Part shown: in pieces, positions 894 through 40,773 of the stretch
How positions within the stretch are numbered: position 1 is the stretch's first letter
How the letters are laid out: each line of letters starts with the position of its first letter
Origin: a virus
Lineage: Duplodnaviria; Heunggongvirae; Uroviricota; Caudoviricetes
Strand: one strand, 5' to 3'
IMG/VR virus record: IMGVR_UViG_2870464427_000004
Location: 1-42,839 of that record
DNA length: 42,839 bases
Translations under genes and position numbers: made by a program
Notes under the pieces: model-generated
Database searches by the model: none
Seen by the model: the letters and a program-made list of their open reading frames with translations, nothing else
Told to the model about the DNA's origin: nothing

Positions 894-1448
894 TCATTTA
901 TCTCCGACCGGAAACTTCTTATACAAAGTCGATACGCCAACATCATAAATGATCGCCACATTCTGGCGATGAACTCCTGATGCAATTAGTCGCCCGGCCT
1001 GCGCCCATTGTTCTGGTGTAAGTTTGGGACGACGTCCACCAATTCGTCCCTGTGCGCGAGCAGCTTCCAGTCCAGCTTTTGTTCGTTCAACAATCAGTTC
1101 TCGTTCCATTTCAGCCAGGGCCCCCATCACATGAAAGAAAAAACGCCCCATCGGTGTGCTGGTATCAATAGCATCCGTCAGGCTGCGAAAATTAACGCCA
1201 CGTTCGCGCAACTCCTCAACCAGAATGACCAGATGCCGCATACTACGCCCCAGCCGATCCAGCTTCCAGACAACCAGAGTGTCACCTGCCGATAATGTCC
1301 TGAGCAGTTTTTTCAGTCCCGGCCTTTCGGACTTTGTACCGCTTATCTTGTCTTCAAAAATCAGCTCGCATCCTGCACAGTTCAGCGCATTACGTTGTAG
1401 ATCTGTGTTCTGGTCATTTGTTGACACACGTACATAGCCAATAAGCAT
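894..1448 (-). CDS. pin: Serine recombinase, Pin/Gin/Hin/Cin-family DNA invertase
   Basis: N-terminus MLIGYVRVSTNDQ (catalytic Ser motif), VVWKLDRLGRS, C-terminal HTH; sits adjacent to inverted-repeat-bounded tail-fibre segment. True start at ATG 1448 (ORF track extends to 1484). Confidence 0.9.
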   Translation of the reverse strand: MLIGYVRVSTNDQNTDLQRNALNCAGCELIFEDKISGTKSERPGLKKLLRTLSAGDTLVVWKLDRLGRSMRHLVILVEELRERGVNFRSLTDAIDTSTPMGRFFFHVMGALAEMERELIVERTKAGLEAARAQGRIGGRRPKLTPEQWAQAGRLIASGVHRQNVAIIYDVGVSTLYKKFPVGDK

Positions 1449-1502
1449 GGTAGATCTCCCTGACAAAAGCAGGAATGATGCCATTTGCTCGTTATTTCTG
1501 CA

Positions 1503-20455: not shown

Positions 20456-22077
20456 CAGGCCTGTCTCCCTAGCAGCTCCCAGATGTTCAGGGCTGAATTC
20501 ATTGGGGCATAGTTGATCATCACCGAGTCGGCAAGGTTTGGCGATCGGGTTCCATCAGGCTGTTTATCAATAACGATTTTTCCCACACCATTAATGGAAT
20601 AGGTCGGCTGCGAAAGCTCGATGATGAGTTTATCTTTGAGTGCCATGCTACTGCTGATTGAGATGATTTCGTCCGGGTTGTAAGCCATACCTTCAACCAC
20701 GGCGCGCCAGGTATTCTGAAAAAGTTTACGTAACCGCCACCAGCTCTGGGCTTTGGCGTTAGCGAAGAAGTCCTTGTTCAGACGTGCGGCTTGCCCGTTG
20801 TCCCCGCGAACAGCTTCATCATCCGGATCAAATACCGCGCCGCTACCACGAAACGGTGTGGCGAGTATTGACGGTCGGCGCGCTGCGTAACGCAGTTCGT
20901 TGATGGCGCGCGCATCGCCGCGAACGCCAGCACCCAGGCCGTCCTCGTCGAAGCGAAACTCTTCGAGGTTGTCCTGTTCGCAAAAGCCGAAGACCTTCTC
21001 AACAGACTGGTAAATGTCGCTGCCAACGCCGGACCATTCACGCACGTTCTCCAGAAGGAAGCCGTGACGGGTCGAAAAGGCATTTTTGTCCCGGCCTTCG
21101 TCGGCGACGTCCATCGCGCCCAGTCGCTTGCCCGTTGGCTGAATACCAAGTTTGATATGCGCGTCGACGGCAGCCTGTACCCAGTCGGACGGGATCAGGA
21201 CGCCTTCCGCAGATGCGCTGTAGTTCAGGTCAAGTTCCTGCGCCACCACCACCGGATTGTCGATTTTCTCGCACTCCCTGCGATACCACTCTTCATCCTT
21301 GCGCGGGTCATCTCGCCAGTGGAACGTGAATACTGGTATTTTTCCGCCGTGGCGCTTCTGCGCGAACGGGTTCGCCATGCCATTAACCGAGCTCAGGTCA
21401 ATACGGCAACGGGTGGTTTGCGACAGCGCCGCATCAATCAACAGAGGACGCTGGAGGAATGCAGCTTCATCCACCAGGTAGAGCGTGGTACGGTCACCAC
21501 GTCCGATATTGTCGCCAGCCTCTCCTTTGATAACCGCGCCAGTATCTGGAAACTCAACGCGCATATACGGCGCATGCTTCTTCTCGTCCCACGAACCACG
21601 AAACTCGATGGGCAGTGTTTCCACGAACTTTCGCGCCTTCCAGAACAGCGCCTTCGGGTCACCGGTGCTGTCGACGTATTCCTCTTTACGGGAGCCGAAA
21701 CCGATAACCATTTCTTTGTTGAAGAGACAAAGCGAGCAGGCCAGCCCGATCGCGGTCCAACTGAGCCCCATTTCGCGGCTCTTTTCGGTGATGCCGTTCT
21801 CCAGTCGTTCGCGCCGCTCCATGATCCAGTGAATCCACTCTTCCTGTTTCGGGAACAGCAGAAAAGGGATGGTGACCGGCAGGCCATAATCGATGTTACG
21901 CGGGTCAGTAGTCATACCCCAGTCGATGATGAACTGTGCCGGGTTGGTGCGATAAAACTGTTTTAGTGCAGGCAATATTTCAGGGTTCTGGCGAATGCGC
22001 TGTAAGCGTTCCATCCGCCATTCAAAAACCATCTGGTAATCAGGATGTTTAAAATCGAAGTGAAATGGTAACGGCAT
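20455..22077 (-). CDS. Terminase large subunit
   Basis: 540 aa, downstream of small terminase; acidic motifs consistent with ATPase/nuclease. Confidence 0.8.
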
Positions 22078-22079
22078 AC

Positions 22080-22631
22080 TTAGCCCATCATTTTTTTATA
22101 CGCTTCTGCAGCCTGCTCCGGCGTTAAGTTGGTAATTTCTGTTCTGACTGGTCCTCCGTCAGCACCAGTCACTTCATTTTTGACGTTGTCTTTAAACGCC
22201 TGAACAGAAATATGGCGCCCAAGCAACTCAAGGTTTTTAACCTTATCAGGCCATTTGATTTTCTTCAGAAGTGCGGCGCTATCTGCGGATACCATCTCCA
22301 CGACATCCATTCCTGATAGCGTTGTGCGCCATACCTTAGGCCAGTCTTTAATGGGTTTTAGCTCACCGTTTTGCAGGAGAATGTCAAGCACATCCATCTG
22401 GTCGATTTCAATAAGGCGATTAAGTACATATTCTGCATTAATACCAACAAGATCATTGCGTTGCGCTTTCAGTTCGGCGATTCTTAACTTGATGTCAGGT
22501 TTTGACAGGTTTTCGGATGCGGTACGGTTAGCTGTCTTAGCGCTGTACCCCGCCCGAATAGCCGCTTGCGTGGCGTTTAAATCGATGAGGTACTCGCGAC
22601 AGAACATCTCTTGTTTGTCGGTGAGCGCCAT
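22080..22631 (-). CDS. Terminase small subunit
   Basis: 183 aa; N-terminal [13 protein letters not shown]...[12 protein letters not shown] motif typical of small terminase family. Confidence 0.8.
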
Positions 22632-22647
22632 TTAGTTACCTCGGGGA

Positions 22648-23109
22648 ATGATAATGAATTTATTAGATTTTTGTGTTGAAAAATATGAATCTGGAGAGCG
22701 GTCCTTCAGAAATGGAGTAGAACCAAACAAAGATAAAGTTGCTGAAATGCTGAACTTTGTGTTTACAACTCTTAAGAATGGCATTCAGGATGATGTAAGC
22801 AATTATCCCTCCATCAAAGCCCTGTTGAATCTCGAGTTGACCCCAAATGGCGGATTTAACATGAACTATCTCCCAGATCTTATCGCGCTTGTATTTGACG
22901 TTGTAACCGACCGGAATCGTAACCCGGAACTTTGGTTTCAAAAGATAGGCGGCATTTCTGATGAAATATCATTCACAATCTCTATACTTCTGTACGGTCC
23001 TATTGGGCATGTAACCCATTCAGGTAAAGGGGCCGCATATGGGAAAAATTATGAATCAGTTAGGTCTAATCTCATAGATGATTTGGATGCAAATATTTTC
23101 CACGGATAG
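22648..23109 (+). CDS. Hypothetical protein, opposite-strand accessory gene between terminase and lysis modules
   Basis: 153 aa ORF, AT-rich by eye, opposite strand to the whole late operon. Confidence 0.6.
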   Translation: MIMNLLDFCVEKYESGERSFRNGVEPNKDKVAEMLNFVFTTLKNGIQDDVSNYPSIKALLNLELTPNGGFNMNYLPDLIALVFDVVTDRNRNPELWFQKIGGISDEISFTISILLYGPIGHVTHSGKGAAYGKNYESVRSNLIDDLDANIFHG

Positions 23110-23246
23110 GATTTTGAGTTCTGATTTAACGGAGAGAGCAATCTGGCCCGGGGCACCGATTCGATGGCCTCCCAGTCCGGTTTTGCCATGAATTTTTCCT
23201 CTTAGTGACATTATCGAAGCTCCTTATCAAAGGAGCTTCTGTAATG

Positions 23247-23459
23247 TCAGTCCCGAACAAACGTAACCTTCGTGTTTGTCGCTCGCCTTACAAGGCGCGC
23301 CGCTTCGCGTTGCATTTCATCGATAACTTTTGGCGTCATCGGCTGATGCGCATATTTACGTTCAATCTCTGCAAAAATCCCGTTCATCGTTTCGCTGTCT
23401 GGTGGGATAACTTCAACGTTTAATCGTGCCATTAGTTTGTGCTGCCCTGTTTTTCTCAA
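23247..23459 (-). CDS. Small hypothetical protein downstream of spanins
   Basis: 70 aa ORF, basic, last gene of lysis cluster. Confidence 0.4.
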   Translation of the reverse strand: MRKTGQHKLMARLNVEVIPPDSETMNGIFAEIERKYAHQPMTPKVIDEMQREAARLVRRATNTKVTFVRD

Positions 23460-23691
23460 AAGTCCTGATATCAGCCTTATCCCTGTTGCACTGTGCTAAC
23501 GCTGACAACAACGCAACATTCAGGTTAAGGCTGGCTCCCCACGTAAACGGGTCGGGTAAATCTGGCTGGGGTGTTTCATCCGTCAGACTGGCTGGTAACG
23601 GAACGACCGGCACCGACACGTATACCGTTCGCGTATTCGTGCAACCGCTTAACTGCGCCAGAAGGAACGATACGAACAGCGCAATCATCAT
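23413..23691 (-). CDS. o-spanin (Rz1-like outer-membrane lipoprotein), overlapping Rz
   Basis: Internal start MMIALFVSFLLAQLSGC (lipobox) followed by Pro-rich region; overlaps i-spanin gene in another frame. Confidence 0.6.
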   Translation of the reverse strand: MMIALFVSFLLAQLSGCTNTRTVYVSVPVVPLPASLTDETPQPDLPDPFTWGASLNLNVALLSALAQCNRDKADIRTFEKNRAAQTNGTIKR

Positions 23692-25654: not shown

Positions 25655-26074
25655 TCACCCAACAGGGAAGAAGAACTCGTTTACCGCAAGGTCTAACGAC
25701 ATCTCTAACCCATCAGGCAGTTTGCGAGATGCTATTTTCTCCGGGGAGGTGTGTGTCGCGCCCTTTGGAATATCTTCCAGCTCAACAACGTTGCCGTGGG
25801 AAACCTCCAATTGACCCAGATCGCTATCCAGAGCAAGCGGACGTACCGCAGAAACCGGTGAGAAACCCTCCAGTTGCTCAAGAACAACAGCCCAGGCAAT
25901 CACCCTGCGAAACCAAAAAACCTCACCTGCAGGAGTCTGGTCCCTGTCAATAATGGGCTCTACGACCCAAAACCTTCGGGTTGTCTCGGCTTCCACTGAA
26001 CGTATGGCCGTGGATGCTTCTCCCGGTTCCGCTGTTTCATTTTCTATCATTTTTGAAACTTGTATTTTTTGCAC
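25655..26074 (-). CDS. Hypothetical protein
   Basis: 139 aa ORF between iteron region and Q-like gene. Confidence 0.4.
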   Translation of the reverse strand: MQKIQVSKMIENETAEPGEASTAIRSVEAETTRRFWVVEPIIDRDQTPAGEVFWFRRVIAWAVVLEQLEGFSPVSAVRPLALDSDLGQLEVSHGNVVELEDIPKGATHTSPEKIASRKLPDGLEMSLDLAVNEFFFPVG

Positions 26075-26125
26075 GTTTGTTTACTCCACTTAGCTATTTG
26101 CAGTTTTCTGCAAGTTTATTGTTGA

Positions 26126-26386
26126 AGTAACAGTAAGGTAACAGATAAATAGCTAACTGTTACCTCCTGTAGGGAGCGCCACATAAGGCTTAACCCCGTT
26201 TTGGGTAACAGGTAACAGTTACTTTTAGTTCTATATACGTATGCGCAGGTATAGTACGTATAATATAAAGTCTCGCGTATATAAACTAAATACTACTGTT
26301 ACCTGTTACCTTTTTTAGTTATCCATGTGAATTTATTGATATTTTCAAGGTAACAGTTAGTCGTTTTACTGTTACCTTACTGTTAC
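26126..26386. repeat. Iteron array: 10 copies of GGTAACAG (5 direct, 5 inverted) flanking an AT-rich core; putative replication origin
   Basis: Direct copies at 26126, 26136, 26203, 26210, 26348; CTGTTACC copies at 26156, 26295, 26302, 26368, 26379; AT-rich stretch 26221..26290 between inner blocks. Confidence 0.75.
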
Positions 26387-26390
26387 CTTT

Positions 26391-28655
26391 TTACAATCCA
26401 GATTGCAAAATTTCGCAAGTTTTATATATTTCGCGCAATTCCTCATTATTGAAGTCGCAATTTTTTGCAAGTATCCAGAAGCGATAACCCATTCCGTCAA
26501 TTTTTACTAAATCTGTTGGCTGCCTTTTTGTTTTTTCTCGCAATAGCTTTGTTATGTGCTTCTGGTTAATTTCTACATCCATTCCTGCTTCTGCCAGTAT
26601 TGCGTTAACAATTTGTTGATAAGTCATTGCTGGTACAGGCGGATTATCCAGGATTTCAGTAAGAGCAGCCTCCACATCGCTCTTATTGCTTTCAATCATC
26701 AGAAGGCGTTCTTTCGTCTCGGGGGCGCGCTGCCAGTTAAAGCGAGACAGGTCAACGCCCATCAGATACCAGTACACCTGGGCGATAAAGTCGCTGTCGC
26801 TTAGCGCACCGTACAGGCTGGCGTAATGCTCTTCAGTTGCGGCGAAGTCAGGGCCCCCCAGCACAGCGATACGTCGGTCTTCCTCTGGCAGCGCCAGCGC
26901 ATCAAAGTGGTTGGTGTAGAACAGAAAGCCGGTGTATATATCCATCGTTTTTTTGCTGCCATATTTGCGGTTCACTTCAAACCGTGGTTCTGTCAGCACA
27001 TCGCGGATCTTATCGTTCACCTCATACCGCTTATCGTTTTCGCGCACCTCGTCAATGGTGCATAGAAGCGTATTGTACAGATAGTCATGGAACTGGTTAT
27101 CGCACAGGATCTTCATGCGAGTACGAGCACAGTTCCACGGGCCAAGCACGCGCTCCATTAACTGGCTGACCCATCCTCTGCCCGTACCGTGTGCGGTAGC
27201 CACATGCAGAATAGAAATCGGGCATCGACGCTCCGGACGCTGAACCATCCACCCCAGACGGGCGATGAAAAACTCGCGCTGCCATACATCAGGTACCAGA
27301 TACGCCATATGATTAAGGAACGTGGACACCTTACTTGTATCCGCTGTACGTGGATGCTCAGGCATATAAAATTCGTTTATCTCAAACCGCCCGTCGAAAC
27401 GCTCGATAATACGTCCCGCACCGGGCTTATAGCCTGTCGTCTCAGCAATCTTCTTATGCCGATGCTCTATCCACCGTTTGGTTGCGGGAGTTGGTTGCCC
27501 TTTCCCTTCTGGCGGGAACTGGTAAGGCGCCATCAGGTTTTTGAACGACTTCATATCCATCATGCACTGATATGGCGGTCGGCTAAGATCACATACCTGG
27601 TCACCCTCGATGACGTAGATAAAGCGTTCCAGAAAATGAGCTGTCATATCTGTATTAATATCGGTAAATTCAGGCTTATCGCCATCTTCAGCCACCGTGA
27701 GATCTTCGAACAGGGATTGCGTATAGCCGTAGCCTTCCAGCCAGTCGGCATCAGTAAGCCCCGCATCGGTGTTGTGCATGCTTTTAAAATGTCCCTGTTC
27801 AAATCCCCCCGTCCCTTTTGGGAAATACTTAATGGATGTTTCGCTGCAACCGTTGCTGTATTCTGACTCATCCCGAAACGGTTTCAGATTGCGGGAACCA
27901 TCAGAGCTGACTGACAGAGTCCACCCGTTCGCGTCAAGCCAGTCGGCGACATCATCTGTCGCGGAAGGATCAACACAGGAAAGATCACGCTGACGTCCTG
28001 CACCTGCGGTATAGCTGTCTTTCACGGGTAAGTTATCCGCCAGACGCTGCCACAGGCTTTCGAGCTGTTCAGATGTAATTTTCAGAGGTTCGCCGGGCAA
28101 ACCGCAGTCCCACTGAATACGTTCGCCTGCCGGATGGGTACCACAAGCCACAAACTGCTGGCCCTTAGCGAGCAGCTCTATTTGTTTGTTTTCGCCTTCC
28201 AGGCGGTGACCACGTTTACGGTAGTCGCCATCAACAGCAATCAGGTACAGGCATTTATGACTGTCAGCCCGCCAGCGACGTGGCGGAAGTTCCCCCAGGC
28301 ATGACAGGATAATATTGCGTACGATCTCCTGCATCCCGGCGTCATTGATATCGCAGTCCAGAGCCACCACCCCGTCGCCAGTACGAACGCAAATACCGTA
28401 ATCGGGTTCGTTCGACCACCGGGCAAAATCGTTTTCCGTAACAACATAGTTAGCCCAGTCGGGGATACCAACAACCTTACGTTGGCCATTGTAGCGACTG
28501 GGTGTTTTGCCGAAATTATGAGACAGCTTGCTATTAGGCGACAATTCTGCACAGGGATTGGACACCACAGGTAAAAGCCTGTCTGTCATCCCCAACACCA
28601 GATCGAAGTGGAACCACTCATCAGGCGTAGCTCCCCATGGTTTGTTATCAGACAT
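26391..28655 (-). CDS. Replication protein: N-terminal archaeo-eukaryotic-type primase-polymerase domain with P4 alpha/D5-like C-terminal region
   Basis: 754 aa; VVALDCDINDAG (DxD primase motif) near N-terminus; follows cro-like gene; iterons immediately 3'. Confidence 0.75.
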   Translation of the reverse strand: MSDNKPWGATPDEWFHFDLVLGMTDRLLPVVSNPCAELSPNSKLSHNFGKTPSRYNGQRKVVGIPDWANYVVTENDFARWSNEPDYGICVRTGDGVVALDCDINDAGMQEIVRNIILSCLGELPPRRWRADSHKCLYLIAVDGDYRKRGHRLEGENKQIELLAKGQQFVACGTHPAGERIQWDCGLPGEPLKITSEQLESLWQRLADNLPVKDSYTAGAGRQRDLSCVDPSATDDVADWLDANGWTLSVSSDGSRNLKPFRDESEYSNGCSETSIKYFPKGTGGFEQGHFKSMHNTDAGLTDADWLEGYGYTQSLFEDLTVAEDGDKPEFTDINTDMTAHFLERFIYVIEGDQVCDLSRPPYQCMMDMKSFKNLMAPYQFPPEGKGQPTPATKRWIEHRHKKIAETTGYKPGAGRIIERFDGRFEINEFYMPEHPRTADTSKVSTFLNHMAYLVPDVWQREFFIARLGWMVQRPERRCPISILHVATAHGTGRGWVSQLMERVLGPWNCARTRMKILCDNQFHDYLYNTLLCTIDEVRENDKRYEVNDKIRDVLTEPRFEVNRKYGSKKTMDIYTGFLFYTNHFDALALPEEDRRIAVLGGPDFAATEEHYASLYGALSDSDFIAQVYWYLMGVDLSRFNWQRAPETKERLLMIESNKSDVEAALTEILDNPPVPAMTYQQIVNAILAEAGMDVEINQKHITKLLREKTKRQPTDLVKIDGMGYRFWILAKNCDFNNEELREIYKTCEILQSGL

Positions 28656-28900: not shown

Positions 28901-28963
28901 TTACAGGTTTACTTGTAATTACCTCACAGGCAACCTTGTTTGTCAAATACAGAAGTATCTGTA
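28901..28963. promoter_or_regulatory. Operator palindromes in cI/cro intergenic region
   Basis: TTACAGGTTTACTTGTAA (28901..28918) and TACAGAAGTATCTGTA (28948..28963); candidate -35 TTGTCA / -10 TAATCA for the cI side. Confidence 0.5.
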
Positions 28964-28990
28964 ATCATCAATGACAGAAAAGGAGTCAAC

Positions 28991-29620
28991 ATGAATCTTG
29001 CCAACCGAGCTAAAAAACGCAGAACAGAACTAAACTTAACTCAGGTCGAAGTTGCGAAACGAGCAGGCATTAGCCAGCAGTCGATTGAAGCTATAGAGAA
29101 TGGGAAAACACTTAAACCACGCAATCTTCTTGCTTTAGCGTCAGCTCTTGAATGCGATCCTAAATGGCTACTTCTTGGGGGCGATGTTGTTACAGATTTC
29201 AACTACGGAGCTCGAAGGGTGCCTGTTCTAAGCTACGTACAAGCCGGGGCTTTCACAAGCGCTGAGCTACTTCGTGAAGAAGGTGATTTCGAATACATTC
29301 TCACCACGGCTGAGCTATCAGAAAGTTCATTTGCGCTACGTATACGTGGGGATTCAATGGAACCTGAATTTAAAGAGGGGGACATCGTTATAATTGACAC
29401 TGACGTATACCCTACTCCTGGTGAATTCGTTGCGGCATGTAACGGTAGCCACGAAGCAACGTTCAAAAAATACCGCCCGGTAGGGATTGGCGCTAAAGGT
29501 GAGGAAGACTTTGAACTTGTTCCATTGAATAGTGATTACCCTATTTGTCGCTCCTGGGAAAAACCAATTAAGATCATAGGGACAATGGTAGAACATCGCA
29601 TATTCCGCAGAAAAAGATAA
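28991..29620 (+). CDS. CI-like repressor (HTH plus LexA/S24 peptidase-like autocleavage domain)
   Basis: HTH LNLTQVEVAKRAGISQQSIEAIENG; C-terminal GDSMEP and FKKY Ser-Lys dyad context; start ATG 28991 with AAAGGAG RBS. Confidence 0.85.
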   Translation: MNLANRAKKRRTELNLTQVEVAKRAGISQQSIEAIENGKTLKPRNLLALASALECDPKWLLLGGDVVTDFNYGARRVPVLSYVQAGAFTSAELLREEGDFEYILTTAELSESSFALRIRGDSMEPEFKEGDIVIIDTDVYPTPGEFVAACNGSHEATFKKYRPVGIGAKGEEDFELVPLNSDYPICRSWEKPIKIIGTMVEHRIFRRKR

Positions 29621-33728: not shown

Positions 33729-34397
33729 GTGCTGGGGTATCTCATGAGGGAAAGAATAATGTCACAGCCCGTATTAACTAATCACCTTAAAACTCAAATC
33801 ATCAATAACGCACTTGAGAAAGCGGGTATCCCCAAACGTAAATCAGCACTACGAGCTGCTCGTGTTGAATGGGCCGAACGTGTTCGGCTTGCAGCTATCG
33901 GGGGCGTAGAGAAAGAAGCTGAAATATTAAAAATTATAAAAAAAATAGAAATACTGGTATCAAAAGTCCCCGAAGCATTAAAAACCGCCAATAATATTAT
34001 CAGGAAAGAGTGTTACATGTGTCTGAATCTGGCAGGTTCTCGGGTTACCGTCTATTTCAACGGTAACTATCGAGGATATGAATCAGGGTCACCAGACCAT
34101 ATTCACAAAATCGCGCCGGGGGAATTTACCCTTCTGGCAAATGACCCTCTAGTTACAGAGTTTTACGGGTTTGATGCACTTTATGAGCAGATACAGAGCG
34201 ATGAGTCAGACATTCGACAGAATGTCAGCGCTGCACTCAGTAAAGTGCGCACAGTTAAGCGCCTGCTGGAAGAGTGGCCTGAAGCTAAAGAACTTCTGCC
34301 AGCCGATGCACCATCTGCTCCGCTTCCGCCAGCTATACGACGCGAAACTCTCAACGAAATGATCGGCCTCCCTTCTGACGAAGGGGTAGATGCTTAA
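33729..34397 (+). CDS. Hypothetical early protein
   Basis: 222 aa ORF; start uncertain. Confidence 0.5.
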   Translation: MLGYLMRERIMSQPVLTNHLKTQIINNALEKAGIPKRKSALRAARVEWAERVRLAAIGGVEKEAEILKIIKKIEILVSKVPEALKTANNIIRKECYMCLNLAGSRVTVYFNGNYRGYESGSPDHIHKIAPGEFTLLANDPLVTEFYGFDALYEQIQSDESDIRQNVSAALSKVRTVKRLLEEWPEAKELLPADAPSAPLPPAIRRETLNEMIGLPSDEGVDA

Positions 34398-37075: not shown

Positions 37076-37371
37076 TCGTTTACGTTGCCGGGCCGATGAG
37101 CGGTTACGAGCAATTTAACCGCCCGGCTTTTCATTCCGCAGCAAAGAGGCTAACGGACAAGGGATATGTTGTGCTTAACCCCGCAACTTTACCCAATGGT
37201 TTGACACAGGCTCAGTATATGGACATCTGCCTCGCAATGCTTCGCTGTGCCGATACGATTTATATGCTCAAAGAGTGGGAGTACTCTGCTGGCGCACGTG
37301 CAGAAAACGCGTTGGCAGAGAAACTGGAATTGAATGTGCTTTTTGAAGAGTGGGATTCAGATGGCCTATGA
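37072..37371 (+). CDS. DUF4406-like protein (nucleoside 2-deoxyribosyltransferase-like fold, putative)
   Basis: N-terminus MIVYVAGPMSG...VLNPA resembles DUF4406; tentative. Confidence 0.45.
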   Translation: MIVYVAGPMSGYEQFNRPAFHSAAKRLTDKGYVVLNPATLPNGLTQAQYMDICLAMLRCADTIYMLKEWEYSAGARAENALAEKLELNVLFEEWDSDGL

Positions 37372-37630
37372 ACGTGAAAGCCTTATCGAAAAGCACCTCG
37401 TCGCTGAAGTGAAAAAAGCTGGCGGAGTGGCCTTTAAGTTTGTATCTCCCGGTCACCGCTCGGTACCGGATCGCATTGTCCTGCTACCAGGTGGTCGTAT
37501 CGTTTTCGTTGAATGTAAATCTCCCGGCAAGCCACCACGGCCTGACCAATTGCGCGAACATGAACGTCTGCGAAAACTGGGCTTTACCGTAGTGGTGCTG
37601 GATAGCAAGAACCTAGAGAGGATATTATAA
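37361..37630 (+). CDS. VRR-NUC domain nuclease
   Basis: GHRSVPDRIVLLPGGRIVFVECKSPGK matches VRR-NUC catalytic pattern (PD...ExK); start ATG 37361 overlapping upstream stop. Confidence 0.8.
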   Translation: MAYERESLIEKHLVAEVKKAGGVAFKFVSPGHRSVPDRIVLLPGGRIVFVECKSPGKPPRPDQLREHERLRKLGFTVVVLDSKNLERIL

Positions 37631-37634
37631 AAAT

Positions 37635-38204
37635 TTAGTCAATGCCTTTTTGATTGAACTTCTGATTCTCCAGTATGCTTTGCAGCTCAATATTATCATT
37701 TGCAGCGGTTTGTTTATGCTCATGATATTTTTCTTGCGTATAATTTCTTTCTCTTAGTTTCTGTGCGTAATTATTAGAAATAATATCATGACGATCTTGT
37801 AATACTTGTTCAAGTTGACTTTTAAAGTCCTCTATCTTTTCATTAGAAATAACATTTTTGTACTTTTCAATATCACGGCGAAGTTCTTTTTCTTTCTTCT
37901 TATTAATGCTTAATAACTGTCGATTAACGCTACCTAAGGACCATTTAAACCCAATCGACTTTATCCAATGCGCCAGAAACATAGCGCAACTGGGAAGCAT
38001 TAATAAAAGAAATGGCTTTATTGTATTTAAATCAGAACCAATATACGGAAAACGACCGTCCCACGAGGACACCAGTAATGTTAAAAAACCAGTGATGCCA
38101 CCAGCAGCAACATTAGAAATCAGAGGGACTTTTTCGTAGCTATCAGGTTTAGAAGCGCTACTCAAACGTCCCTCCTTTGACTGATCTTCCAGCACGAATG
38201 GCAT
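37635..38204 (-). CDS. Membrane protein with C-terminal coiled-coil (cassette gene 3)
   Basis: 189 aa; two hydrophobic helices then Lys/Glu-rich coiled-coil; very AT-rich; may start at internal Met (38000). Confidence 0.5.
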   Translation of the reverse strand: MPFVLEDQSKEGRLSSASKPDSYEKVPLISNVAAGGITGFLTLLVSSWDGRFPYIGSDLNTIKPFLLLMLPSCAMFLAHWIKSIGFKWSLGSVNRQLLSINKKKEKELRRDIEKYKNVISNEKIEDFKSQLEQVLQDRHDIISNNYAQKLRERNYTQEKYHEHKQTAANDNIELQSILENQKFNQKGID

Positions 38205-38406
38205 TCATTGCAATTTTGTAAAATTCATCATCAGAAGAGACATCAACGACATCGCGACGGACAACTCCTTCTGAGTCAACACATTCAAGAACAAGATGAT
38301 GTTTAGGCATAAGCGCAAAGCGTAACCGGTCAAACCCCATCTTAAGAACCCAATATAGTACGGGAAGCAGGCTAAAAAAAGCCAGCCAAAAAGCAAAAGC
38401 AATCAT
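38158..38406 (-). CDS. Small membrane protein (cassette gene 2)
   Basis: 82 aa; N-terminal TM helix MIAFAFWLAFFSLLPVLYWVL. Confidence 0.5.
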   Translation of the reverse strand: MIAFAFWLAFFSLLPVLYWVLKMGFDRLRFALMPKHHLVLECVDSEGVVRRDVVDVSSDDEFYKIAMNAIRAGRSVKGGTFE

Positions 38407-38429
38407 AGCCCCCTCCCCATGTGAATCTA

Positions 38430-39308
38430 CTATAAGATGCCGTGTACTTTAACAACTATGTACGTTTTGTCCAGCGAATTCAAGTTCTCACGGACGAGCA
38501 AATCAACGCAGTAAGCATCACTAAAAACACCAGGTTCTCTTCCCGTACTAACACGTTGTAAGAACTCAGTATCTTCTATAGACACGCTGATTGTGTCATC
38601 GCCATAGTTGACTCGCCAGCCTGTGTTTTTATCCTTATGAATAGTCAAAAATGTGATTAGAGCCTCTTCAATCACCCTTTCAGACAAGGACTGCACTACA
38701 GGAACGCGCCTATATCTGAACGGTTCAATATTATCTTCGTGCACCTTAATCAGCTCAACCCCCTGTTGAGTTGAAATTTTAAGCGATTCGTATCCTTCCT
38801 TTTGCAAAGGATTATGAATTAACTTCGATAAGGATTTGCGTATGCTTGGTGAGGCAAGTAAAGGCCGGAAATATGACGGGGCTATAATTTCCTCACCATC
38901 ATCCATAACTATTTTACAGTCTCCTTCCGCTGTTAAAGTCAACCGTTTTATTTGCCTACCATTGATCTGACGAATTAAGTCAATGAGAGTATTTCCTGCT
39001 GCGAGTGCAGTTGTACCTCCAAGCCCAATAATGCTTAATATATTCAAATGGTCAAGTGGATTTTGAATAACATCAATCAAATACTCAAATGAGCCTTCCT
39101 TAAAAGGCTCAACCTCAACATTAATACACTCACTAGTGCCATTGACAACCAAATTAACTTCTTTAAGCAAGTTGTTTAGTCCATTCAATGACTCAGTTAA
39201 AACATCCAAATCTATTTTATGATCTGCTAGTGCGGGACCATCATATTTAACAACTAATTTATCAGTAATATTTTCTTCTTGCTGGACATCTGTATAAGCT
39301 GAGGTCAT
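38430..39308 (-). CDS. Hypothetical soluble protein (cassette gene 1), unknown family
   Basis: 292 aa ORF, AT-rich, divergent from SNF2 helicase gene across a 67-bp spacer. Confidence 0.65.
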   Translation of the reverse strand: MTSAYTDVQQEENITDKLVVKYDGPALADHKIDLDVLTESLNGLNNLLKEVNLVVNGTSECINVEVEPFKEGSFEYLIDVIQNPLDHLNILSIIGLGGTTALAAGNTLIDLIRQINGRQIKRLTLTAEGDCKIVMDDGEEIIAPSYFRPLLASPSIRKSLSKLIHNPLQKEGYESLKISTQQGVELIKVHEDNIEPFRYRRVPVVQSLSERVIEEALITFLTIHKDKNTGWRVNYGDDTISVSIEDTEFLQRVSTGREPGVFSDAYCVDLLVRENLNSLDKTYIVVKVHGIL

Positions 39309-39375
39309 AACTGTTCCTTTCGAAATAAATAATTAAGCTATTACTACATAAGTTCATTCATGGAGATACAATACC

Positions 39376-40773
39376 ATGGACTATGCTATATTTTCACCTC
39401 ACCCCTACCAAGATCTCATCATCAATCATCAAATCGACATTATGCGCTGCAACATCTGGGCAGGTATGGGAATGGGTAAAACCGTGGCAACGCTCACTGC
39501 GCTGGAAGATCTTTTTATGGCAGGGGCAGAAACACGCCCCGCACTGGTCCTCGCGCCGCTACGTGTTGCAGCAAACACCTGGCCGGATGAAGCAGTGAAG
39601 TGGGGGCATTTGCGCAATATCGAGGTGCAGCCGATTGTTGGTAACGCCAAAGCGCGCTCTACGGCGCTGGCGAACAGCAACGCGAGCGTGTTCACCATCA
39701 ACTACGATAACCTTGTCTGGCTGGTTGAGGAATTGGGAGAACGATGGCCGTTCGGTATTGTCATTCCAGATGAAAGCACCCGGCTAAAATCCTTCCGGCT
39801 GCGAGGTGGTGGTAAGCGCGCGGCGGCGCTGGGCAAAGTGGCGCATAAGTATGTCCGGCGCTGGATAAATCTCACCGGTACGCCAGCACCGAACGGCCTG
39901 GTAGATTTGTGGGGACAATCGTGGTTTGTGGACCAGGGGCAACGTCTCGGGCGCACTTACGGCGCGTTTACCTCACGCTGGTTCAACTCGATACAGTTTC
40001 CGGGGCAGAGCTGGACCAAACTGGAGCCTTTTGCTCACTCACAGGGTGAAATACAGCGAGCGTTAGCCGATGTAACCCTCTCGCTGGATGCGGCCGACTG
40101 GTTCGATATCAAAGACCCCATCCATAACGTAATCCGCGTGGATATGCCACCGAAGGCCCGTCAGCAGTATCGTGAAATGGAAAAGGAAATGTTCCTCGAG
40201 CTGAATGGCGAAGGCATCGAAGCACCGAACGCCGCGGCAAAGACACTGAAGTGTCTGCAAATCGCCAGCGGCGCAGTATACACAGATGACACCGGAAGTT
40301 GGTCAGAACTGCATGACACCAAACTACAGGCGCTGGACAGCATACTGACCGAAGCAGCTGGCGCACCTGTGCTGGTTGCTTATCACTGGAAACACGATCT
40401 TGAACGCTTGCTTAAAGCATTCCCTCGCGGTCGTCACCTCGACCAGGATCCACAGACACTGCGCGACTGGAATTCCGGAAAGATTCCTGTTCTCTTTGCA
40501 CACCCAGCCAGCGCGGGCCACGGCCTGAACATGCAGGACGGCGGAAATATACTGGTATTTTTCTCACACTGGTGGGACCTGGAGCAATATCAGCAAATTA
40601 TTGAACGTATCGGCCCCACCAGGCAGATACAGGCCGGACACAATCGTCCGGTATTTATTCACCACATTATTGCTGCCGACACTATGGATGAAATGGTGAT
40701 GGAGCGGCGCAACTCAAAACGAACAGTGCAGGACATCCTGCTCGATGCCATGAAAAAGAGAGGTATAGCATGA
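39376..40773 (+). CDS. SNF2-family helicase
   Basis: Walker A GMGMGKT, DExx box IPDEST, C-terminal helicase motifs. Confidence 0.85.
   Translation: MDYAIFSPHPYQDLIINHQIDIMRCNIWAGMGMGKTVATLTALEDLFMAGAETRPALVLAPLRVAANTWPDEAVKWGHLRNIEVQPIVGNAKARSTALANSNASVFTINYDNLVWLVEELGERWPFGIVIPDESTRLKSFRLRGGGKRAAALGKVAHKYVRRWINLTGTPAPNGLVDLWGQSWFVDQGQRLGRTYGAFTSRWFNSIQFPGQSWTKLEPFAHSQGEIQRALADVTLSLDAADWFDIKDPIHNVIRVDMPPKARQQYREMEKEMFLELNGEGIEAPNAAAKTLKCLQIASGAVYTDDTGSWSELHDTKLQALDSILTEAAGAPVLVAYHWKHDLERLLKAFPRGRHLDQDPQTLRDWNSGKIPVLFAHPASAGHGLNMQDGGNILVFFSHWWDLEQYQQIIERIGPTRQIQAGHNRPVFIHHIIAADTMDEMVMERRNSKRTVQDILLDAMKKRGIA

Follow-up and report, generated by a model that had tools for sequence, protein, structure and literature searches.

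A three-gene prophage cassette of Escherichia coli with a core protein of the MichelleMyBell gp29 family, a candidate for anti-phage defence

Three genes between VRR-NUC and SNF2

We analyzed a stretch of 42,839 nt from a tailed phage of the Caudoviricetes (IMG/VR record IMGVR_UViG_2870464427_000004), in the following referred to as the window. The window is an Escherichia coli prophage: its integration adjoins yfhL, and across the region it matches the chromosome of strain CREC-544 with 100% identity. Inside its replication module three genes, here called A, B and C, are located on the minus strand between the genes for a VRR-NUC protein (37334–37630, plus strand) and an SNF2 helicase (39376–40773, plus strand). 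Our findings suggest that they form a prophage accessory cassette (a ‘moron’), with a core protein, A, that belongs to the family of gp29 of mycobacteriophage MichelleMyBell and with a probable role in protecting the lysogen against other phages. Gene A runs from 39308 to 38430 (an open reading frame of 292 amino acids, aa), gene B from 38406 to 38158 (82 aa) and gene C from 38165 to 37635 (176 aa). Apart from the start of C, these genes agree in number, strand and location with an earlier note on this DNA, which was written from the sequence alone and had also described the cassette as far more AT-rich than the backbone. This description was borne out: the GC content of the cassette (0.379) is the lowest among all segments of 1,745 bp (mean 0.502, standard deviation 0.034), and the GC content at third codon positions is 0.31–0.35 in the cassette genes compared to 0.49–0.59 in the flanking genes. 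A, B and C each match a separate PHROG family, and for the ratio of nonsynonymous to synonymous substitution rates, calculated against a copy with 85–89% identity, we obtained 0.07 for A, 0.12 for B and 0.07 for C. By these measures all three are genuine genes under purifying selection. A scan with Rfam found no family.

Using BLASTP, A could be aligned from end to end with MichelleMyBell gp29 (310 aa; 26% identity over 307 columns, E 6e-12), and the comparison by hhalign with family profiles gave 98.8% (E 4.8e-17, 268 columns) and 97.2%. It was a depositor's label on a Vibrio homologue of A, ‘MMB_gp29_gp30__gp29’, that pointed to MichelleMyBell as the comparison. Both proteins score far above the cut-off of 60 bits for NCBIfam NF053583 (A 193.7 bits, gp29 181.4 bits), with residues 19–290 of A matching profile positions 2–289 of 292, and both match the PADLOC family PDC-S42, A through PDLC05015 (E 6.1e-40, residues 17–288) and gp29 with an E value of 1.6e-16. 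In Pfam we observed a weak match to DUF7946 at the N-terminus of A. The literal LAPAL motif, which occurs in distant members and in the family consensus, is absent from A, where LTESL is found at the aligned position. Judged by these alignments A is a full-length member of the gp29 family, so that the statement of the earlier note that no sequence ties the cassette to a known family can no longer be upheld. The family itself is large: a profile search (E <= 1e-3) returned 4,423 clusters at 50% identity, nearly all of them 280–330 aa in length.

The residues G24, G172, W231, D246 and F249 are invariant throughout the family, and nothing like a catalytic motif was seen among them. We predicted the structure of A with AlphaFold (predicted local distance difference test 77.9, predicted template modelling score 0.60). 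The model shows an N-terminal beta-alpha-beta-beta unit, a hydrophobic stretch of low confidence and two beta-barrels, corresponding to a predicted layout of an N-terminal alpha/beta domain, a Gly-rich hydrophobic segment at residues ~88–112 and two barrels resembling the oligonucleotide/oligosaccharide-binding (OB) fold at residues ~118–192 and ~205–292. The assignment as OB-like is made with moderate confidence and is our own reading of the secondary structure, in which the order of elements is strand-strand-strand-helix-strand-strand; the fold matches of A are to the OB proteins RPA, SSB and PriB. A Foldseek search, one of the checks proposed in the earlier note, found nothing for the model in the PDB at E <= 1e-3, the sequence profile of A had no match in the PDB either, and the search of BFVD led to uncharacterised phage proteins only. 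When we compared 46 diverse family members, the most hydrophobic 19-mer was located at residues ~88–112 in 40 of them. Leu, Gly, Ile and Ala are abundant in this stretch, whose median Kyte–Doolittle value is 1.58, with at least 1.6 in 19 of the 40. The earlier note had regarded the 292-aa protein as soluble, and this conserved Gly/Leu-rich segment (Kyte–Doolittle 1.37 in the window) adds a caveat to that view.

The 82-aa protein B has one N-terminal transmembrane (TM) segment, as the earlier note had stated, with a Kyte–Doolittle value of 2.06, followed by a conserved C-terminal domain of ~55 aa. C has two moderately hydrophobic helices (1.65 and 1.55) and a tail of ~100 aa that is helical; its juxtamembrane motif, GFKWSLGSVNRQLLSINK, hardly varies. 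In the AlphaFold model of C helices span residues 16–36, 50–103, 108–152 and 159–172, and with a predicted template modelling score of only 0.28 the model was too poor for a fold search. Basic residues follow each helix of B and C, and from the positive-inside rule the conserved parts of both proteins are predicted to face the cytoplasm. For the start of C we considered two positions. The longest open reading frame comprises 189 aa from an ATG at 38204; however, the Shine–Dalgarno sequence AAGGAGG is located 5 nt upstream of a TTG at 38165, PGAP annotates 176 aa, the profile of phrog_15878 begins at residue 14 of the long frame, and homologues of 165–171 aa have an ATG at the exact aligned position of this TTG. 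TTG 38165 is therefore very probably the true start of C, so that B and C would overlap by 8 nt and not by the 47 nt given before. Of the earlier picture of C as a 189-aa protein with two TM segments and a coiled-coil tail, the two hydrophobic segments and the long predicted helices remain, while the length is likely 176 aa. An overlap of 4–20 nt is kept in other copies, which suggests translational coupling of the two genes.

B matches phrog_15510 (E 2.4e-55). Apart from PHROGs of unassigned function, nothing credible was found for B and C in PADLOC, Pfam and NCBIfam, so that the PADLOC check recommended for all three proteins yielded a family for A only. One homologue of C matched HlyE (E 0.0018), which is weak and was not relied on. 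Among homologues with a named source organism, those of C are detectable almost solely in Enterobacterales. The proteins encoded at the position of C in Aeromonas and Vibrio have the same architecture and have diverged beyond detection by tblastn.

A variable slot and the distribution of the trio

Next, we investigated the boundaries of the cassette by comparison with sibling prophages. Homology ends at 37633 and restarts at 39390–39396, which leaves a variable segment of 1,756 bp (37634–39389) made up of the cassette and its upstream spacer; no repeats bounding this segment were found. The flanks of the cassette are present in 158 of 5,426 complete E. coli genomes. The slot between VRR-NUC and SNF2 contains the cassette in 17 of these 158 genomes and lacks it in the other 141, and in 2 more E. 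coli genomes a version with 70% identity occurs at another location. The siblings carry other cargo in the slot, mostly on the minus strand: BstA, a DUF6338 protein together with an 86-aa protein, lone hypothetical proteins of 236 or 265 aa, a Dcm methyltransferase, or Rha and Arc regulators. The BstA gene is full-length and is located on the minus strand of the slot in the prophage of UPEC957C (locus L018, 2766–3698; PADLOC 1.4e-115). BstA thus shares slot, strand and kind of prophage with the cassette; however, it is an unrelated single abortive-infection protein, and A, B and C have no BstA match in PADLOC. From its occurrence we conclude that the prophage can do without the cassette, which is a horizontally mobile insert at a hotspot for cargo genes.

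Phage vB_EcoM-606R2, which has the same module, carries a CAP12/Pycsar-type TIR protein between PolA and VRR-NUC (locus L002, 1310–2071; PDC-S35, 1.2e-108). With BstA in the sibling slot and this TIR protein one junction upstream, the replication module therefore contains several junctions for defence cargo, and the junction between VRR-NUC and SNF2 in this group of prophages is a hotspot to mine for more defence genes. In addition, the window has a gene for Nmad5 (nucleotide-modification-associated domain 5; 33729–34397, plus strand; Pfam 2.6e-56) between DUF2815 and PolA. At this junction the sibling prophage L001 instead encodes a 209-aa hypothetical protein on the minus strand, for which reason we regard the Nmad5 junction as a second variable slot of the module.

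In order to see how far the three genes travel together we examined the loci of homologues of A; the locus search with close alignment yielded 2 genome loci, and the trio was found in 17 IMG/VR prophage contigs. In every retrieved locus with an A at least 43% identical, B and C follow downstream of A in the same order. As far as these loci show, A, B and C are inherited as a unit across unrelated elements with their order kept, and conservation across loci is highest for A and lowest for C. The genomic settings are diverse. An Enterobacter prophage has the trio in the same VRR-NUC–SNF2 slot, E. coli and Klebsiella prophages have it just past the integrase, and in a Serratia lambdoid prophage it comes directly after, and is co-directional with, the gene of a CI-like S24 repressor, the position taken by rexAB in lambda. 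In Pantoea the trio lies inside the tail/baseplate module, which probably explains why NCBI named the family ‘putative phage structural protein’; the genomic contexts seen here do not support this label. On an integrative element of Aeromonas the neighbours of the trio are a type I restriction system, Fic and an Mrr_N protein, and in Photobacterium it adjoins metH. Finally, we found it beside the integrase of the Vibrio phage 10N.286.45.F8_PE001 (PQ189332.1; locus L016, 5989–7593), a 14-kb PM2-like virus of the Vinavirales and thus of a different viral realm from the tailed phages, where it makes up ~11% of the genome.

One copy is interrupted. In E. coli O157:H16 Res13-Lact-PEA12-26 (locus L007, 7142–8974) an IS66 element cuts C after ~93 codons and leaves A and B intact; it represents a natural partial knockout that could inform on toxicity. 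Further away in the family the partners change: in six distant lineages sampled (two environmental assemblies, Ewingella, Mesorhizobium, a metagenome-assembled genome of Pseudomonadota and one more metagenome contig) A stands alone or beside non-membrane genes, and in a Rhodococcus prophage its partner status is ambiguous. Because distant lineages have A without membrane partners, A appears to be the conserved core and the membrane partners lineage-specific additions.

Comparison with known systems and likely function

The MichelleMyBell prophage lowers the plating of phage Tweety by 4–5 logs (PMC8549241). Its system is described as abortive-like, with adsorption and DNA injection still taking place (PMC6426606), and a secondary source calls gp29 toxic and gp30 a putative membrane protein and gives the mechanism as unknown (PMC11856565, 2025). 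MichelleMyBell gp30, a protein of 67 aa, contains two segments of strong hydrophobicity and is encoded by a gene that shares 41 nt with the end of gp29. The similarity to the cassette is therefore twofold: A and gp29 are full-length homologues of ~300 aa encoded by prophage-borne accessory genes, and in both cases a gene for a small membrane protein follows immediately and overlaps the preceding gene. The partners, however, differ. Here they are two proteins (82 aa with one TM segment; 176 aa with two TM segments and a helical tail) where MichelleMyBell has a single protein of 67 aa with two TM segments, and while A falls into the gp29 family, B and C fall outside that of gp30 and are not detectably homologous to it, so that only the architecture is analogous. 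The hosts are Gammaproteobacteria here and Actinobacteria there. Since B and C are unrelated to gp30, the two-gene rule MMB_gp29_gp30 of DefenseFinder would probably miss the A–B–C version, and PADLOC reports the cassette only as the single-gene candidate PDC-S42, whereas A has two obligate neighbours in this cassette. A statement that gp29–gp30 is restricted to Actinobacteria was dropped, as in several papers this name stands for the (p)ppGpp-synthetase system of Phrann and not for that of MichelleMyBell, and the statement may concern Phrann.

The earlier note had drawn a parallel to RexA/RexB and Kiwa. We found no sequence link to either: for Rex there was no DUF4747 in Pfam and no Rex model in PADLOC, and B and C have one and two hydrophobic segments compared to the four TM segments of RexB; for Kiwa (KwaA, KwaB/DUF4868) neither PADLOC nor Pfam gave a match at E <= 1 for A, B or C. 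The resemblance to lambda RexA/RexB and to gp30/gp31 of mycobacteriophage Sbash is one of layout only, that is, a cytoplasmic protein of ~280–300 aa with one or more membrane proteins encoded on a prophage. To this can be added a similar proposed abortive logic of membrane depolarisation and, for the Serratia trio, the location directly after a CI-like repressor, just as rexAB directly follows cI (PMC6426596). A phage lysis cassette (holin/spanin) was rejected as a candidate: the genes lie on the opposite strand between replication genes, PHROGs and Pfam give no lysis annotation, and the same trio is found beside integrase, repressor and restriction genes.

The homology of A to gp29, the match to PDC-S42, the dispensable mobile insert in a slot that elsewhere holds BstA and the rexAB position in Serratia together argue for defence of the lysogen, which we consider probable. 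The cassette is most likely a three-gene gammaproteobacterial variant of the abortive-type gp29–gp30 defence. For the novel defence or abortive-infection system proposed in the earlier note this means that the defence function receives indirect support, while the system is not entirely novel. As a tentative model, and one that may well need revision, the lysogen would express the cassette, whose genes run antisense to the operon for lytic replication. B and C would be inner-membrane proteins with their conserved parts in the cytoplasm, and they would keep A at the cytoplasmic side of the membrane. After entry of foreign phage DNA the OB-like barrels of A could bind a product of the invading phage, either nucleic acid or protein, and this binding would activate A. 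Through its Gly-rich hydrophobic segment and/or B and C, activated A might then compromise the membrane or arrest growth, so that the infection aborts. A would hence be both sensor and effector core, with B and C as lineage-specific partners that gate or amplify it. The division into a cytoplasmic sensor and membrane effectors made in the earlier note is not established, given that A is without membrane partners in six lineages and gp29 has been called toxic (PMC11856565). More speculatively still, and with considerable doubt on our side, the gp29/LAPAL/PDC-S42 family might be a mechanistic class of abortive defence of its own, in which a product of phage replication is sensed by the two OB-like barrels in tandem, and these then set free a Gly-rich, membrane-inserting segment that had been latent, the enterobacterial A–B–C cassette being a subtype with two inner-membrane proteins for gating or amplification.

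Several observations weigh against the defence function or the model built on it. The phenotype of MichelleMyBell rests on secondary sources, and PDC-S42 is a candidate defence family only; PDC systems were picked for being embedded within known defence systems. The comparison of gp30 with the profiles of B and C by hhalign gave a probability of 0.3%. The OB-fold similarity of A is moderate, and in the A of the window the hydrophobic segment stays below the TM threshold. Furthermore, most of the distant family members are without membrane partners, and a membrane step may thus not be general, and the copy with IS66-cut C but intact A and B argues against a simple model in which C neutralises a toxic A. 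As to expression, the earlier note had the cassette divergently promoted from the spacer shared with SNF2. This spacer exists (39309–39375; 67 bp, AT-rich, ending at the SNF2 start codon) and is the presumed promoter region; however, a scan for the sigma-70 consensus found no site of at least 9/12 in it, and the DNA upstream of the cassette showed no conservation and no common promoter across the genomic contexts, so that a promoter at this place is something we infer.

Other functions have to be weighed against defence. In a toxin–antitoxin-like stabilisation system A would be a toxin restrained by its membrane partners, and the benefit would be retention of the element. The toxicity ascribed to gp29 (PMC11856565), the tight, overlapping coupling of the genes and the location of the cassette always on mobile elements would fit such an addiction; on the other hand, the MichelleMyBell prophage has a real defence phenotype (PMC6426606, PMC8549241), A is often solitary in distant lineages, with no partner as an antitoxin, and the copy with truncated C keeps A intact. 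We think addiction improbable as the main role, although addiction and defence are not mutually exclusive. A similarly low likelihood is assigned to superinfection exclusion, in which B and C together with A would block DNA entry without killing the cell, as P22 SieA, T4 Imm or Charlie gp32 do. Two small inner-membrane proteins on a prophage, adjoining the repressor or the integrase in several contexts, are what one would look for in this case, but adsorption and injection are reported to proceed in MichelleMyBell (PMC6426606), the conserved portions of B and C are expected on the cytoplasmic side, and the core protein A is not a clear membrane protein.

The cassette could also confer a lysogenic-conversion trait unrelated to phages, for example in envelope stress or competition, since no mechanism is reported for the family and morons carry many kinds of host-fitness genes. 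That A is homologous to a defence protein, that the neighbourhood is of the defence type and that the family was picked for PADLOC through guilt-by-embedding in defence systems makes this in our view quite improbable. Of all alternatives the weakest is a role in the life cycle of the phage itself, as an OB-fold replication accessory, a virion protein or a lysis accessory. The fold matches to RPA, SSB and PriB, the location between replication genes, the NCBIfam name and the Pantoea cassette within tail genes could all be read in this way. However, 141 of 158 siblings with the same replication module lack the cassette, it has the opposite strand and a foreign composition, and none of its PHROG annotations pointed to lysis or structure. 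The trio also occupies positions that are not homologous to one another, and it is present in a PM2-like virus that belongs to another realm and, next to restriction genes, in a non-phage island. Its absence from most siblings, together with its presence outside phages and in another viral realm, makes this role very unlikely in our view.

With these results, a candidate family of 4,423 clusters is now linked to a defence validated in mycobacteria, and the compact three-gene version in E. coli prophages offers a tractable host and phage panel for questions of sensing and of the membrane partners. No mechanism for the gp29 family was reported in the literature we found, where it figures as a single-gene candidate in PADLOC and under a structural name at NCBI. 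Our literature search found no account of PDC-S42, DUF7946 or the LAPAL motif, the DefensePredictor paper contained no recognisable match, and ‘S42’ was not found in the supplements of the PDC paper.

Further features of the prophage

The structural genes of the prophage occupy the minus strand. The gene of a CI-like repressor lies at 28940–29620, and the replication module comes next on the plus strand with DUF2800, DUF2815, Nmad5, PolA, ANR, DUF4406, VRR-NUC and SNF2, with a tyrosine integrase beyond. Besides the cassette we recognized two AT-rich patches. The first (22001–23500; GC content 0.43–0.45) contains an orphan plus-strand open reading frame at 22648–23109, with no family match, within the minus-strand structural block, and the second (26001–26500; GC content 0.358) is located at the end of a primase-polymerase gene (26391–28655). 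A gene for a Hin-like serine invertase (894–1484, minus strand) adjoins those for tail-collar and tail-fibre assembly proteins (1475–2646), and the region 894–2646 is probably an invertible tail-fibre switch of host range.

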